DNA of 32,000 bases from Minisyncoccota bacterium. GTDB lineage: Bacteria > Patescibacteriota > Minisyncoccia > Minisyncoccales > Minisyncoccaceae. Of this stretch, positions 13,191-20,388 are shown piece by piece. The DNA lies in NCBI GenBank assembly GCA_041650175.1, contig JBAZLS010000003.1, positions 39,917 through 71,916 on the forward strand, read 5' to 3'. The number at the start of each line of letters is the position of its first letter. Position 1 is the first letter of the stretch. The notes under the pieces were generated by a model. That model ran no database searches, had not been told where the DNA came from, and was given only the letters and a program-made list of their open reading frames with translations. Position numbers and translations under genes: made by a program.

Positions 13191-14084
13191 CTATTTTTCA
13201 AGCTTTTTTTGAGTTCGAGCCTTTTTTATTCGAAAGTTTTGAGCTTTTTTAACTATCGCTTTCGTTATTTTTGATTTCTTTTCCTTTTGTAATACTTTTT
13301 TAGCTTTTAAAGCAGTTGTTTTTGTTGGTTTTTTCTTTGGCGTTTTTGAAATAGGTCTTTTTTTGGGTTTTACTTTACTATCCTTAGTCAAAAGCGAAAT
13401 ATCTTTATCATAACTATTATCTATTTTAATATCGTAATTTTTTTCTTTGTTAGTGTTAATCCATTTTTTAATTTTAACTTTAAAAAGAGGAACGTCATCT
13501 CGATCGAAAAAAATTCTATTTTCAATTAAATCTCTCTTTCCGCTTAATGGGAAGATATCATTTAAAGGGACTATTCTTTTTAATATCAAAATGATTAATG
13601 CGCAGAATAATAGAGAGAAAGTGCTCCAAAGATTTATATTAGCAAAAGACATCATAACTCCGAGCAGGACAGAAATCATAATAGCAACAGAAGAGCTCCA
13701 AAGCATAGAAAAAATAATACAGACTAAGCACATAATCAAAACTATTGGAAGATATAACGGCAATAATGTTCCTAGTAAAAGAGGAAAACTTTTTTCTTCT
13801 CTAGCATTAAAAAAAGGAGACCAGCTATGTCCGATAATACTTGCAATTCCACAAAGAGCTTGAACTTGGAGAGGCGCTCCAAATAAAAAAGGAAGAAATA
13901 CTGCAAGAAATCCTTTTAAAAGGCTCAAAGAAAAAATAGTTATATTTTGCCAATTGTAATCAAAATCTTTAGTATCACCTTTATTATCATAAAAAAATCT
14001 TCCAGCGATATGTTCAATGGGTAAAAGTCCTATTATGTAACCGCTAATAATAAAAAGGAAATAAATAAAAAAATCATTAATCAT
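13191..14084 (-). CDS. Degenerate PlsY-like polytopic membrane protein with a lysine-rich (histone H1-like) C-terminal tail
   Basis: The N-terminal 190 aa align by eye with PlsY topology (IIGHSWSPFF corresponds to the GHxxPxF motif) but lack the GSGNxGxTN and KGGKG motifs. The C-terminal ~80 aa read KPKKRPISKTPKKKPTKTTALKAKK... 8-nt overlap with the upstream plsY. Confidence 0.6.
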   Translation of the reverse strand: MINDFFIYFLFIISGYIIGLLPIEHIAGRFFYDNKGDTKDFDYNWQNITIFSLSLLKGFLAVFLPFLFGAPLQVQALCGIASIIGHSWSPFFNAREEKSFPLLLGTLLPLYLPIVLIMCLVCIIFSMLWSSSVAIMISVLLGVMMSFANINLWSTFSLLFCALIILILKRIVPLNDIFPLSGKRDLIENRIFFDRDDVPLFKVKIKKWINTNKEKNYDIKIDNSYDKDISLLTKDSKVKPKKRPISKTPKKKPTKTTALKAKKVLQKEKKSKITKAIVKKAQNFRIKKARTQKKLEK

Positions 14085-14751
14085 TTAAATATGTTTTATT
14101 TTTAATTTTTTTAATTTGATCTTTAATACGTGATATATGCGCAATTATTATAAGAATAGTTGTGGTAAGTCCTGTTAAAAATAATTCTGGAGCTGCAAAT
14201 CCGATATAAAAAACTCCGATTATTTCTCCAATTATTCTTCCGATTATTTGATTTGAAACAGCTTTCTTAAAAAATTTCTTACTTGCTGGTCTTTTGGCAA
14301 ATACTTCACCAATAAGTATACAGGAAAAAAGAATAATGAAGTATCCTAAAAATGCTTTTGGATTATAAAATAATATTATTCCAAAAAAAGAAGCAGCCCC
14401 TCTTCCCCCTTTAAAATTAAGAAATGGTGAGTAATTATGACCGAGAACTACAAAAAAGGTAGCAATAGTTATAGCAATCGATTGATTATTTATAAGTCCT
14501 GTAGCCAAATAAGCAGCTAATACTGCTTTTCCTGCATCAAGTAAAAACACGCAAAGAAATGATAATACTCCAATTATTGAACCATATTTTCTGCTTGAGG
14601 CACGGAGCGTATTTAAAGCTCCTGTATTTTTTGAACCAGAATCGCGCAAATCTTCTTTTAATGCAATTTTTCCGAAAAAATAAGCAAAAGGAATAGATCC
14701 GAGTCCGAATGAAAATATCGCAATTAAAATATAGACAATTATATCCTCCAT
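14077..14751 (-). CDS. plsY: Glycerol-3-phosphate acyltransferase PlsY (acyl-phosphate dependent)
   Basis: GSIPFAYFFGK, DLRDSGSKNTGALNTLR, LDAGKA, GHNYSPFLNFKGGRGAA motifs. Confidence 0.85.
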   Translation of the reverse strand: MEDIIVYILIAIFSFGLGSIPFAYFFGKIALKEDLRDSGSKNTGALNTLRASSRKYGSIIGVLSFLCVFLLDAGKAVLAAYLATGLINNQSIAITIATFFVVLGHNYSPFLNFKGGRGAASFFGIILFYNPKAFLGYFIILFSCILIGEVFAKRPASKKFFKKAVSNQIIGRIIGEIIGVFYIGFAAPELFLTGLTTTILIIIAHISRIKDQIKKIKNKTYLND

Positions 14752-14772
14752 GTTTTATATCAAATTACTTAA

Positions 14773-15651
14773 TTATTTAGTAACGCAACAAATAAGTGCG
14801 CCTGGTCCAACATGAGCGCCGATAACATAACTGGTCAGGCTGATAAATTCTATTTTTACTTTTTCTTTATATTTTTCTAAAATATCATTTTTAATTTTTT
14901 CAGCATCTTCAGGAACTCCAGCATGACTGATAATTATACGACAAACTTCCCCTTGCGCTAAAGGTTCTTTTATTTGAACATCAAGTTCTTTTAAAAGTGC
15001 ATCTGAAGCATTCTTTGCTTGCATCTTAAGAGTGGATGGTTTTATTTCTCCATTTTTCATCATAAGAATAGGCCTCATTCCTACTTTTTGCATTTGATTT
15101 ATTAGTATAGTTAAAGAATGATTTATTCTTCCGCCAGCCTCTAACCAATTCGCATTTTCAAGCGTTGCAAAAAGCTTTATATCTTTTAAAAATTCCTTTA
15201 ATTTTTCAATAATCTTTTCGGCACGCAATCCTTCAGAAGAAAGTTCAGCAGCTCGAATAGCAAGAAATGATTCTGCTGCATCAGCATTTAAAGAGTCTAA
15301 TAAAAAAATCCTTTTCTGATTTTCTGGGGTTAGCATTTTAATAGCTTGGAATGCTGAATTATAGGCTCCTGAAAGTTTAGAACTGATAGCAATACAAATT
15401 ACTTCTTCTGCTACTTGCAATCCTTCTTCAAATGCATTTTTATAAACACCAATAGATGGTTGAGAAGTTTTGGGCCCTCCGATTATTTTTGTTTTTGTAG
15501 CTTCTCTCATTTTTTCATAAATATTTTCTCCTTTGATGTTTTCTTCGCCTTCCCAAATAAGCTTGAAATCAACAACAGTGAATTCATATTTTTTGACTAC
15601 TTCTTCTGTGATTGATGCACTAGTTCCAATGATTATATTTAAAGGTTTCAT
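14773..15651 (-). CDS. DegV family fatty-acid-binding protein (FakB-like)
   Basis: KTSQPS and SSKLSGAYNSAFQA motifs; C-terminal GAHVGPGAL; ~290 aa. Confidence 0.9.
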   Translation of the reverse strand: MKPLNIIIGTSASITEEVVKKYEFTVVDFKLIWEGEENIKGENIYEKMREATKTKIIGGPKTSQPSIGVYKNAFEEGLQVAEEVICIAISSKLSGAYNSAFQAIKMLTPENQKRIFLLDSLNADAAESFLAIRAAELSSEGLRAEKIIEKLKEFLKDIKLFATLENANWLEAGGRINHSLTILINQMQKVGMRPILMMKNGEIKPSTLKMQAKNASDALLKELDVQIKEPLAQGEVCRIIISHAGVPEDAEKIKNDILEKYKEKVKIEFISLTSYVIGAHVGPGALICCVTK

Positions 15652-15690
15652 ATTTATAATTTTAATTCAAGATTAAAAATGTTGCAATGA

Positions 15691-19086: not shown

Positions 19087-19215
19087 AATGTTTGTTTAGT
19101 TATTTTAAATTATTTCATTAAAAAATTACAAAGCAATCTACCTTTTTCGCCTCTTTTCTTATAAGTGCGTTAAAGTTTACGTTTAAAATTTTATAAAGCC
19201 TTTATTTACCTTATA

Positions 19216-19782
19216 TTACCATTTTGCTTTATGCAAGCCTAAATCATAACCGATCCTATTGAATATTATATGAATAAAAAATGTTAAAGGAATTAAAATT
19301 ATCCAAAAAAGACTCTCAAAGTGATAAAAAGGCTGAAGCACGATAAAACATCCTATACAATAATTTATTTGGTCAAATGGTATGAATGGCTGTCCAGGTT
19401 TTATTTTAAATCTCCGTTTTATAAAAGCGAACAACAAATCTCCGAAAACTGTACCAATAGATAGTAAAAAACCTGCAATTAACGCATTTGTAGCATTAGC
19501 ATTAAACCCGATTAATTGGTATAAATTTAATCCTAAAAATTCGTGAATAAAGAAAAATATTTGAAAATATCCAGTCCCAACGATAATTTCAGATAATAAT
19601 CCCCTCCATGTTTTATGGTTGCCTAATAACGGAGATCCAAAAAACCTATAATTAAAATCAATGGGGCCTGCTAATTTTGTGAAAAATTTTGAGTTTCTAG
19701 CAACTAATGGTGGAGCAGCATTTGCGCAATATGCTGGTATAAAAAAGTATATGCAAGCGAGTATATATAATAAGAAATCCAT
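19216..19782 (-). CDS. CarS-family (CDP-archaeol synthase-like, DUF46) integral membrane cytidylyltransferase homolog
   Basis: IPAYCANAAPPL, PIDFN...LLGNHKTWRG, GDLLFAFIKRRFKIKPGQPFIPFDQ motifs match the CarS family pattern rather than the CdsA PGHGG pattern. Confidence 0.7.
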   Translation of the reverse strand: MDFLLYILACIYFFIPAYCANAAPPLVARNSKFFTKLAGPIDFNYRFFGSPLLGNHKTWRGLLSEIIVGTGYFQIFFFIHEFLGLNLYQLIGFNANATNALIAGFLLSIGTVFGDLLFAFIKRRFKIKPGQPFIPFDQINYCIGCFIVLQPFYHFESLFWIILIPLTFFIHIIFNRIGYDLGLHKAKW

Positions 19783-19788
19783 GAAAGG

Positions 19789-20388
19789 TTAGAATTTTAT
19801 AATTTTTGGCTCAGTTTTTTTAATAAGTCTTTTAATATTTTCACGATGGGCCCACCATATTATTGGAATAAATAATACGCCAAGGATAGTAAAAGGAATT
19901 GATTGAGTACTATACCAAATTGCAACGGGAACAATAAAAATAATTATCAAATTAGTTAAGCTCATTATTTTCAAAGCATACAGTAGTAATACCCAAATAA
20001 ACAAGAATTGCAAGGCATTTTTAAATCCAATAAGACAAATCAATACAGCAAATACTGCCGAAACAGCTTTTCCTCCTTTAAAATTAAGCCAAAAGCTATA
20101 CATATTCCCAATGATCGCTGACAAAGAAATAACTGCAATTTCCCATTCAGGAAGAGAAAAATAAAAAGCTAAAATAACTGGTATGGCAACCTTCAAGACA
20201 TCAAGAATTACGACCAATAAAAAATAAGAAAATCCAAGGCTTCGAAGAATATTAGTTCCTCCGACATTGCCACTTCCCTGTTTTCGGATATCAATTTTTT
20301 TTGATTTTGCAATCAAATATCCAACAGGAGTTGAAGCGCAGATATATGCAAATAATATTAATAAAATAAAAATGAAATTTTGATTCAT
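19789..20388 (-). CDS. plsY: Glycerol-3-phosphate acyltransferase PlsY
   Basis: IRKQGSGNVGGTNILR, LDVLKV, FWLNFKGGKAVS, HRENIKRLIKKTEPKI motifs; 199 aa. Confidence 0.9.
   Translation of the reverse strand: MNQNFIFILLILFAYICASTPVGYLIAKSKKIDIRKQGSGNVGGTNILRSLGFSYFLLVVILDVLKVAIPVILAFYFSLPEWEIAVISLSAIIGNMYSFWLNFKGGKAVSAVFAVLICLIGFKNALQFLFIWVLLLYALKIMSLTNLIIIFIVPVAIWYSTQSIPFTILGVLFIPIIWWAHRENIKRLIKKTEPKIIKF

Follow-up and report, generated by a model that had tools for sequence, protein, structure and literature searches.

The closest described counterpart of the system considered here is the Firmicutes pathway (Staphylococcus aureus, Streptococcus pneumoniae; reference structures 7RM7, 6W6B, 5WOO, 5XJ5), in which FakA and FakB convert free fatty acids to acyl-phosphate, and PlsY uses acyl-phosphate to acylate glycerol-3-phosphate (G3P). 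A row of genes for a similar system is found in the genome of a Minisyncoccota bacterium (assembly GCA_041650175.1, G000 below; 0.94 Mb, 96% complete, roughly 32% GC), in the 32,000-nt stretch of DNA that was analyzed, G000:C3:39917-71916 (contig JBAZLS010000003.1), referred to below as the window. Based on domain content, residue conservation, synteny, gene fusions, and phyletic co-occurrence, from which every enzymatic activity and substrate is predicted, we consider it likely that this locus constitutes the fatty-acid-activation and glycerolipid-initiation half of a phospholipid-assembly system that is independent of the acyl carrier protein (ACP).

In FakA, the N-terminal kinase domain (FakA_N) and the linker domain (FakA_L) are enough for catalysis, with Cys240, His282, and His284 being the catalytic residues, while FakA_C, a FakB-like domain as well, no longer possesses the tunnel for fatty acids and serves for docking of FakB (Subramanian et al., PMC9136124). 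The functional residues of FakB1 are Thr62, Ser95, Ser171/Arg173, Arg205, and His270 (PMC8892158). In PlsY of Aquifex, G3P is clamped by Ser35, Arg45, Lys104, and Asn180, its 2-OH group is bound by Ser142 and His177, and the acyl-phosphate hole is formed by Thr41, His92, and the GGKG loop, the H92A mutant losing 80% of the activity (PMC5700162). Single-chain fusions of Dak2 and DegV, occasional in Chloroflexi and Firmicutes, are mentioned with reference to Erni et al. (2006) in a passage of a preprint (bioRxiv 10.1101/2021.02.16.431466). As for Patescibacteria, Nealsonbacteria have PlsY and PlsC and lack PlsX and ACP, and the source of acyl-phosphate for PlsY has been posed as a question (Probst et al., 2020, PMC7242380), while for Minisyncoccus archaeiphilus genes of the AccC, FabK, FabG, and FabA-like types have been described, with their role termed unclear (PMC12281837). 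In the open-access literature we have found no description of the module studied here in bacteria of the candidate phyla radiation (CPR).

The locus shares with the Firmicutes pathway the Dak2 domain, the Cys/His/His residues of FakA_L, the DegV binders with the Thr62/Ser95/Arg173/His270 network, and a canonical acyl-phosphate-dependent PlsY. It differs from this pathway in having no PlsX/ACP to pass acyl groups to PlsC, in a full-length degenerate DegV domain that replaces FakA_C, in two extra PlsY subfamilies, and in the clustering of all these genes with genes for a CTP-transferase and a membrane protein. Hence, the module is a variation on the known Fak/PlsY pathway; the row itself is real and conserved, and its biochemical steps are all putative. 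It comprises nine genes standing head to tail on the minus strand, from 20832 down to 13191, with intergenic gaps of –8 to 129 nt and a tRNA-Arg gene at the end of the row:

20422..20832, minus strand, YraN/UPF0102 protein (PF02021, 61.9 bits)
19789..20388, minus strand, PlsY1, canonical PlsY (PlsY family of Pfam, 140.6 bits; TIGR00023, 146.9 bits vs. the cut-off of 137.2)
19216..19782, minus strand, CarS-family CTP-transferase (PF01864, 97.9 bits)
18436..19086, minus strand, Msc-like membrane protein with five helices (PF05552, MscS-type transmembrane helix, 54.5 bits)
16617..18407, minus strand, FakA (N, kinase, and L, linker)~DegV fusion of 596 aa (Dak2, FakA_M, and DegV domains)
15691..16578, minus strand, DegVb, FakB-type (PF02645, 158.7 bits)
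14773..15651, minus strand, DegVa, FakB-type (PF02645, 180.9 bits)
14077..14751, minus strand, PlsY2, divergent PlsY paralogue (PF02660, 98.6 bits)
13191..14084, minus strand, PlsY3, third PlsY subfamily (PF02660, 39.6 bits, partial match)

All eight open reading frames (ORFs) of the lipid cluster are found at these coordinates. The initial annotation, made from the sequence without database searches, had proposed a co-directional lipid row at 13191-20388, and both its coordinates and its family calls are correct by Pfam and TIGR hidden Markov models, all Pfam assignments in the row being above the gathering score. The only sizeable gap in the cluster is that of 129 nt (19087-19215) separating the CarS-like and Msc-like genes; it could house an internal promoter or a regulatory element, scans with consensus sequences being uninformative.

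The count of one FakA and two FakB proteins, also proposed initially, requires a refinement, as in the FakA-like protein a FakA(N+L) part is fused to DegV, so that the locus carries three DegV domains. In the fusion, Dak2 occupies residues 34–196 (PF02734, 105.3 bits), FakA_M, residues 237–305 (PF21645, 45.1 bits), and DegV, residues 316–594. The similarity to FakA_N of S. aureus (7RM7, E = 5.8e-33) is confined to the first ~315 residues, and so is the match to 7W7H, a PDB chain of 554 aa whose annotation is that of a dihydroxyacetone-kinase-related kinase; from residue 316 on, the protein matches FakB1 structures. No match to FakA_C (PF13684) is found in the fusion, and a full-length DegV domain (profile positions 1–278 of 280) is present there instead. 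The fusion scores below the cut-offs of the FakA equivalogs (152 vs. 975 for NF038248; 245 vs. 396 for TIGR03599, YloV), the TIGR03599 match covering only profile positions 1–298 of 530. The equivalents of the catalytic Cys240, His282, and His284 are C262, H275, and H277, invariant in the alignment of ten fusion proteins. With the fusion as a query, more than 5,000 matching proteins are obtained from a large collection (E <= 1e-5), and the same architecture is seen in all of the 120 best, those for which the domain content was listed; in public records the fusion is called “DegV family protein”.

Mapping of the FakB1 functional residues onto 184 DegV sequences of related loci distinguishes the free DegV proteins of the row from the fused one. 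DegVa and DegVb both keep the motifs KTSQPS, SSKxSG, G-R, and GxHxGPG, corresponding to Thr62, Ser95, Arg173, and His270 of FakB1. The fused DegV keeps only the Ser95 motif and has lost the equivalents of Thr62, Arg173, and His270: the Arg173 site is taken by a gap and a segment rich in Trp and Lys, and His270 is replaced by Asn, invariant in the ten-protein alignment. As the FakB residues are kept in both free proteins and lost in the fused domain, the assignment of one FakA and two FakB holds functionally. For the same reason we rejected the idea that the fused DegV of this genome works as FakB in cis; most likely, it is a FakA_C-like domain for FakB docking and/or membrane binding. Compared to the known Dak2-DegV fusions, which have the same single-chain architecture, here the fused domain lacks the FakB functional residues, and free FakB proteins adjoin it. 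None of the three DegV domains reaches the FakB1 equivalog cut-off of 350 (102, 85, and 66 bits).

All three PlsY-type genes of the initial annotation do match PF02660, but only PlsY1 is canonical. It is similar to Aquifex PlsY (5XJ5, E = 1e-26), passes the TIGR00023 equivalog cut-off and, in the mapping that covered all the key residues listed above but Ser142, has equivalents of Ser35, Thr41, Arg45, Lys104, His177, and Asn180, the His92 site being the sole change. In the PlsY1 alignment, which includes the reference, this site is occupied by His in 42 of 46 sequences, by Asn in the window protein and that of locus L013, and by Ser in the proteins of L014 and L047. PlsY2 (87.9 bits) and PlsY3 (44.8 bits) are below the TIGR00023 cut-off. 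In PlsY2 we observe a signature of four substitutions, G36K, T41L, K104R, and N180R, 90–97% conserved among ~43 orthologues, with His92, the glycine loop, and His177 retained. PlsY3 orthologues (~40) have common motifs GWKKxSGSNVxKNVG, GHNWS, and FKGGRG, and a unique C-terminal IKRLSPIKE...ENRLIFDQD. The phylogeny of PlsY-type proteins suggested in the initial annotation was constructed with IQ-TREE for 132 sequences and indeed consists of three clades, with ultrafast bootstrap (UFBoot) support of 100 for PlsY1, 98–99 for PlsY3, and 82 for PlsY2, the latter being that of the largest near-pure PlsY2 grouping (40 of 44 sequences). Judging by these residues and the tree, PlsY2 and PlsY3 form two distinct subfamilies of old standing, each with an altered acceptor pocket. 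The overlap of the PlsY2 and PlsY3 genes observed here measures exactly 8 nt in 23 of 35 gene pairs; such conservation of the overlap suggests translational coupling.

PlsY3 of the window deviates from its own family: it lacks the motif-1 loop and has REEKS or the like in place of GGRG, and among the aligned orthologues both losses are restricted to the window, L012, and L013. With these loops gone, we judged an active enzyme unlikely, and PlsY3 of this genome is probably non-catalytic. Its C-terminal tail (13191-13560, ~100 residues from about residue 190) is Lys-rich, of low complexity, and histone-like; such a tail is common to the window, L012, L013, L014, and L047, and absent from other orthologues. 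The change of His92 in PlsY1 is confined to the same clade in which PlsY3 acquired the Lys-rich tail.

The initial annotation suggested that the paralogues handle different acyl chains or lyso-lipids. The three PlsY types differ mainly at acceptor-site residues rather than in any obvious pocket for the acyl chain. In the family consensus of both PlsY2 and PlsY3 the acyl-phosphate hole is kept and the G3P clamp is changed, which makes another acceptor plausible. That these subfamilies are new acyl-phosphate-dependent acyltransferases with a non-G3P acceptor, e.g., lysophosphatidate, glycerol-1-phosphate, or a host lysolipid, is an idea that we regard as rather unlikely; the Fak-bearing genomes lacking PlsC (see below) do leave room for a second acylation by a PlsY-type enzyme. 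If it were true, Fak lineages without PlsC or ACP would build the whole membrane lipid with acyl-phosphate as the sole activated acyl donor, and the fusion of PlsY3 with the kinase, described below, would channel acyl-phosphate straight into the membrane enzyme.

The CarS-like gene begins 6 nt downstream of plsY1 and is labeled CDP-archaeol synthase in public records. Its product exceeds the PF01864 cut-off by far (97.9 bits vs. 22) and remains below that of the NF003114 equivalog (120 vs. 148). It is similar to CarS of A. pernix (ApCarS, 5GUF, E = 2.5e-8) and retains the motifs G-x-x-K-T-x-x-G and G-D-x(6)-K-R-R...D-Q. With archaeal CarS (A. pernix, A. fulgidus) it shares the Pfam family, the length of ~185 aa, five transmembrane (TM) helices, and the G-D...K-R-R...D-Q core, and differs from it in the bacterial host without archaeal lipid-core enzymes, in the acyl-lipid gene context, in the D-Q-x-N variant of the motif, and in the sub-equivalog score. 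Bacterial CdsA (T. maritima, 4Q2E; E. coli) has the same inferred reaction and pathway position and is a distant homolog within the CTP-transferase superfamily, but the CarS-like protein is ~100 residues shorter, and its PF01148 match is marginal and partial (26.5 bits, profile positions 169–232 of 264, that is 64 positions). It is the only match to PF01148 or PF01864 in the genome, where a full-length CdsA (CTP_transf_1, PF01148) has not been found. Geranylgeranylglyceryl phosphate synthase (GGGPS, PF01884) has no match in the genome, and digeranylgeranylglyceryl phosphate synthase (DGGGPS/UbiA, PF01040) is represented merely by a 15.6-bit fragment with a stop codon. As the sole candidate in the genome, tracking CDP-alcohol transferases and acyltransferases across genomes (see below) in the absence of archaeal lipid-core genes, the CarS-like enzyme is most likely a CDP-diacylglycerol synthase substituting for CdsA.

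The membrane protein encoded between CarS and the kinase, described in the initial annotation as an interruption of the lipid row, turns out to be its core member. The Msc-like gene is immediately upstream of the kinase gene in 72 of the 80 best loci (defined below), being the most constant neighbor of the kinase, and it remains beside CarS in the Fak-less genome G064; it is thus a fixed partner of CarS and Fak. The protein is 216 aa long, and only the N-terminal TM-helix repeat of PF05552 matches; the NF033912 score of 40.5 is below the cut-off of 100. Its AlphaFold model (pLDDT 84.7) is all-helical and has no significant fold match among PDB structures (best E = 1.4). With neither the MscS core (TM3 and the cytoplasmic beta-domain) nor a fold match, a mechanosensitive channel was rejected; perhaps, the protein is a membrane platform or a component handling fatty acids or lipids.

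In species-representative genomes, 406 loci encode a relative of the fusion, and synteny was counted in the best 80 of these 406. The full order PlsY1-CarS-Msc-Fak-DegV(s)-PlsY2-PlsY3 is observed in 26 of the 80 loci, and the core CarS-Msc-Fak, in 63; such recurrence shows that the arrangement is far from chance. The loci include a complete genome of Nealsonbacteria (L085) and Ca. Microsyncoccus archaeolyticus (L032). The yraN gene is a conserved upstream neighbor, located in many related loci just before either PlsY1 or the pair of Msc and Fak; probably, it is not a lipid gene.

Several gene fusions agree with the predicted functional links. In G132 (L092:3752-6355, 867 aa) and G108 (L093:2716-5232, 838 aa), genomes from different families, PlsY3, Dak2, FakA_M, and DegV form a single protein. 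Compared to the known Dak2-DegV fusions, these have a PlsY3 domain added at the N-terminus, and their DegV part keeps all FakB functional residues; judging by these residues, a fused DegV as a working cis-FakB does hold for these triple fusions. Both genes adjoin nusA, and in G108 yraN is directly upstream. In G085 (L094:496-2787), a 763-aa protein combines acyl-CoA carboxyltransferase (PF01039) with a PlsY2-type membrane domain, and a PlsY gene is located immediately downstream of the carboxyltransferase gene in at least ten families besides G085.

The phyletic pattern was considered in a sample of 81 genomes of the order, about one per family; as related genomes are not independent, the counts are descriptive. 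Dak2 is present in 23 of these genomes. PlsY is found in all 23 and ACP in none, in agreement with the initially proposed logic of Fak producing acyl-phosphate for PlsY; 18 of the 23 have CarS, 15 have the carboxyltransferase, and 13 have a strong PlsC. CarS is present in 28 order genomes, of which 27 have a CDP-alcohol phosphatidyltransferase, often ~1.2 kb away, and 22, the carboxyltransferase; the former supports the earlier suggestion that the CarS homolog supplies CDP activation. Among ten genomes with CarS and without Dak2, PlsC is present in eight, and at least five (G064, G103, G116, G119, G137) have a tandem PlsC pair; in three CarS-only genomes this pair shares a contig with CarS and lies close to it. 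None of the five genomes with Dak2 and without CarS has a CDP-alcohol transferase. In the sample of 61 genomes of the phylum, Dak2 is found in two, CarS-like genes in ten, and true CdsA in two, CarS-like genes and CdsA never occurring together. The phylum-wide search with protein queries yielded few relatives, and the Pfam-based search confirmed this rarity as real. Thus, within one Paceibacteria-type order of Patescibacteria, the system is conserved in a part of the lineages, with a patchy distribution.

The profile scan confirmed the initial statement that no fab, plsX, plsC, or cdsA genes lie in the window, the remainder of which is made up of housekeeping genes. The inventory of the whole 96%-complete genome gives a mixed picture. 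PlsX (PF02504), ACP (PF00550), and beta-ketoacyl-ACP synthase (KAS, PF00109) have no match in it; with CdsA missing as well, a complete type II fatty acid synthesis pathway accompanied by the canonical PlsX/PlsC/CdsA set, which would have made the row an ordinary accessory cluster, is not found. On the other hand, a PlsC-type gene and FabG/FabZ/FabK-like genes are present on contig C7, and GpsA and a PssA-like CDP-alcohol transferase are encoded on contigs C12 and C1, respectively. The features relevant to lipid synthesis outside the window are:

G000:C1:83146-83739 (L096:3146-3739), CDP-alcohol phosphatidyltransferase, the only one in the genome
G000:C7:5414-15500 (loci L095, L101, L102), second lipid cluster

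The CDP-alcohol phosphatidyltransferase scores best against the archaetidylserine synthase and PssA models, under their cut-offs; a 281-aa ORF without a family match (L096:3783-4628) adjoins its gene. The C7 cluster encodes thiolase, DUF362, FabG, a fusion of FabZ-like and FabK-like domains, a FabK-like protein, PlsC (the only one in the genome), AccC, the biotin carboxyl carrier protein, biotin ligase, and carboxyltransferase, and contains neither ACP nor KAS; hence, the notion of an organism without fab genes was rejected. Reportedly, ACP-independent, thiolase-based synthesis of fatty acids has been proposed for archaea, and the C7 cluster likewise comprises thiolase, ketoreductase, dehydratase, enoyl reductases, and biotin carboxylase with no ACP or KAS; it differs in having bacterial enzymes of the FabG/FabZ/FabK type, and its activity is putative. 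In G104 and G115, a cluster of the C7 type is placed between the kinase gene and PlsY2-DegV-PlsY3, forming one co-directional block of ~21 kb, in which the thiolase gene directly follows the kinase gene, the end is formed by carboxyltransferase-PlsY2-DegV-PlsY3, and the CDP-alcohol transferase gene lies inside on the opposite strand. This contiguity of the two clusters suggests that the window carries one half of a split supercluster.

Combining these data, we propose the following scheme. The two free DegV proteins, acting as FakB, would bind free fatty acids and hand them over to the kinase, whose Dak2 and linker parts, acting as FakA, would produce acyl-phosphate. PlsY1 would transfer the acyl group from acyl-phosphate to G3P supplied by GpsA, yielding lysophosphatidate; the PlsC-type enzyme would attach the second chain, probably from acyl-CoA, yielding phosphatidate; the CarS-family enzyme would convert phosphatidate and CTP to CDP-diacylglycerol; and the PssA-like CDP-alcohol transferase would use the latter, adding the head group.

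A number of observations weigh against this scheme. Residue 95 of PlsY1 (window positions 20104-20106), corresponding to His92, is Asn. In the CarS-like proteins, the second Asp of the D-Q-x-D motif of ApCarS is Asn in 98% of sequences; moreover, archaeal CarS prefers digeranylgeranylglyceryl phosphate and discriminates against phosphatidate, and CarS of A. fulgidus failed to complement a cdsA mutation in E. coli (reviewed in PMC9385802), so that the role in CDP-diacylglycerol synthesis would need changed specificity. Eight of the 23 Fak-bearing genomes of the order have no PlsC for the sn-2 step. No AMP-binding gene of the acyl-CoA synthetase type has been found in this assembly. Finally, scans for promoters and terminators yielded counts at the chance level and no operon boundaries, and co-transcription is putative. 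As to the AMP-binding gene, it is present in the genome G127 of the same genus and in 56 of the 81 order members; its absence here may hence reflect recent loss or an assembly gap, and the argument that PlsC has no donor for lack of an acyl-CoA synthetase is weakened.

The source of fatty acids, the host or the companion thiolase-based cluster, is the point at which the proposed scheme meets a serious rival, given the layout of the supercluster. The Fak system could be the exit of endogenous synthesis, with the ACP-free thiolase/FabG/FabZ-FabK/acetyl-CoA carboxylase (ACC) cluster making or elongating acyl chains bound to CoA. With no PlsX, the products of this cluster would reach the acyl-phosphate of PlsY only via free fatty acids and Fak. 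The cluster on C7 of the same genome, its co-directional continuation from the kinase gene in G104 and G115, the co-occurrence of the carboxyltransferase with Dak2 (15 of 23) and CarS (22 of 28), and the repeated adjacency of PlsY to the carboxyltransferase, up to the fusion in G085, all agree with this explanation, and salvage of host fatty acids as the only source, proposed in the initial annotation, is not supported. However, eight of the 23 Fak genomes lack the carboxyltransferase, eight lack PlsC, and Fak with PlsY also stands alone; no thioesterase has been identified, KAS and ACP are not present, the biosynthetic running of the thiolase-based cycle is putative here, and the role of such genes in the cultured relative is called unclear (PMC12281837). 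On balance, we consider the endogenous origin of the substrates possible, yet not the probable case.

The initial annotation went further, describing a self-contained salvage route from host fatty acids to a CDP-activated lipid by the genes of the locus alone, with the extra PlsY proteins performing the second acylation. Indeed, a system for fatty-acid activation, three PlsY-type proteins, and a CTP-transferase are all encoded in the locus, neither ACP nor acyl-CoA synthetase has been found in the assembly, and the Fak-bearing genomes G080, G120, G132, and G138 have three to four PlsY genes and no PlsC. Still, PlsC, the CDP-alcohol transferase, and GpsA sit on other contigs (C7, C1, and C12), the window PlsY3 has lost the motif-1 and GGRG loops, the activity of PlsY2 is only putative, and the congener has an AMP-binding gene similar to acyl-CoA synthetases, so that its absence here is maybe an assembly gap. 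The row as a pathway complete in itself was therefore rejected, and salvage confined to it seems improbable even with the aid of the extra PlsY proteins. As regards CarS, the wider CTP-transferase superfamily includes CTP-dependent polyprenol kinases, and the protein might be such a kinase, or a CDP-archaeol synthase acting on archaeal lipids of the host, rather than a CDP-diacylglycerol synthase. Its membership in PF01864 and its name in public records point in this direction, as do the presence of the cluster in Ca. Microsyncoccus archaeolyticus (L032), whose name marks life on archaea, and reports of related Patescibacteria as parasites of methanogens. But GGGPS and DGGGPS are not found in the genome, the gene is only 6 nt from plsY1, and CarS genomes have the CDP-alcohol transferase in 27 of 28 cases and PlsY or PlsC in nearly all, a co-occurrence that fits CDP-lipid synthesis on acyl lipids and not a kinase. 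Either role is thus very improbable.

Apart from the lipid row, the window contains two genes similar to pilins of type IV secretion systems (PF18895 / TrbC-VirB2), at 12086-12538 and 2308-3354, one of them located between tRNA-Lys and tRNA-Arg genes just downstream of the lipid cluster, and two large ORFs without Pfam matches, 7473-9242 and 24888-27731 (589 and 947 aa).

CPR bacteria, or Patescibacteria, are commonly portrayed as lacking the capacity to synthesize membrane lipids of their own. The patchy distribution of Dak2 (23 of 81 genomes of the order, 2 of 61 in the phylum) would separate those assembling phospholipids from free fatty acids from those importing whole lipids. The module offers a concrete candidate answer to the question of Probst et al. 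(2020), as a fatty acid kinase is encoded beside PlsY, also in Nealsonbacteria (L085). The C-terminal domain of the Dak2~DegV kinase appears to be intermediate between a working FakB and a docking domain of the FakA_C type, and two unstudied PlsY subfamilies, together with the conserved membrane protein, are nominated as new pathway components. As for the missing CDP-diacylglycerol synthase, we nominate the CarS-family enzyme, in which case the “archaeal” branch of CTP-transferases would be in use in bacteria.

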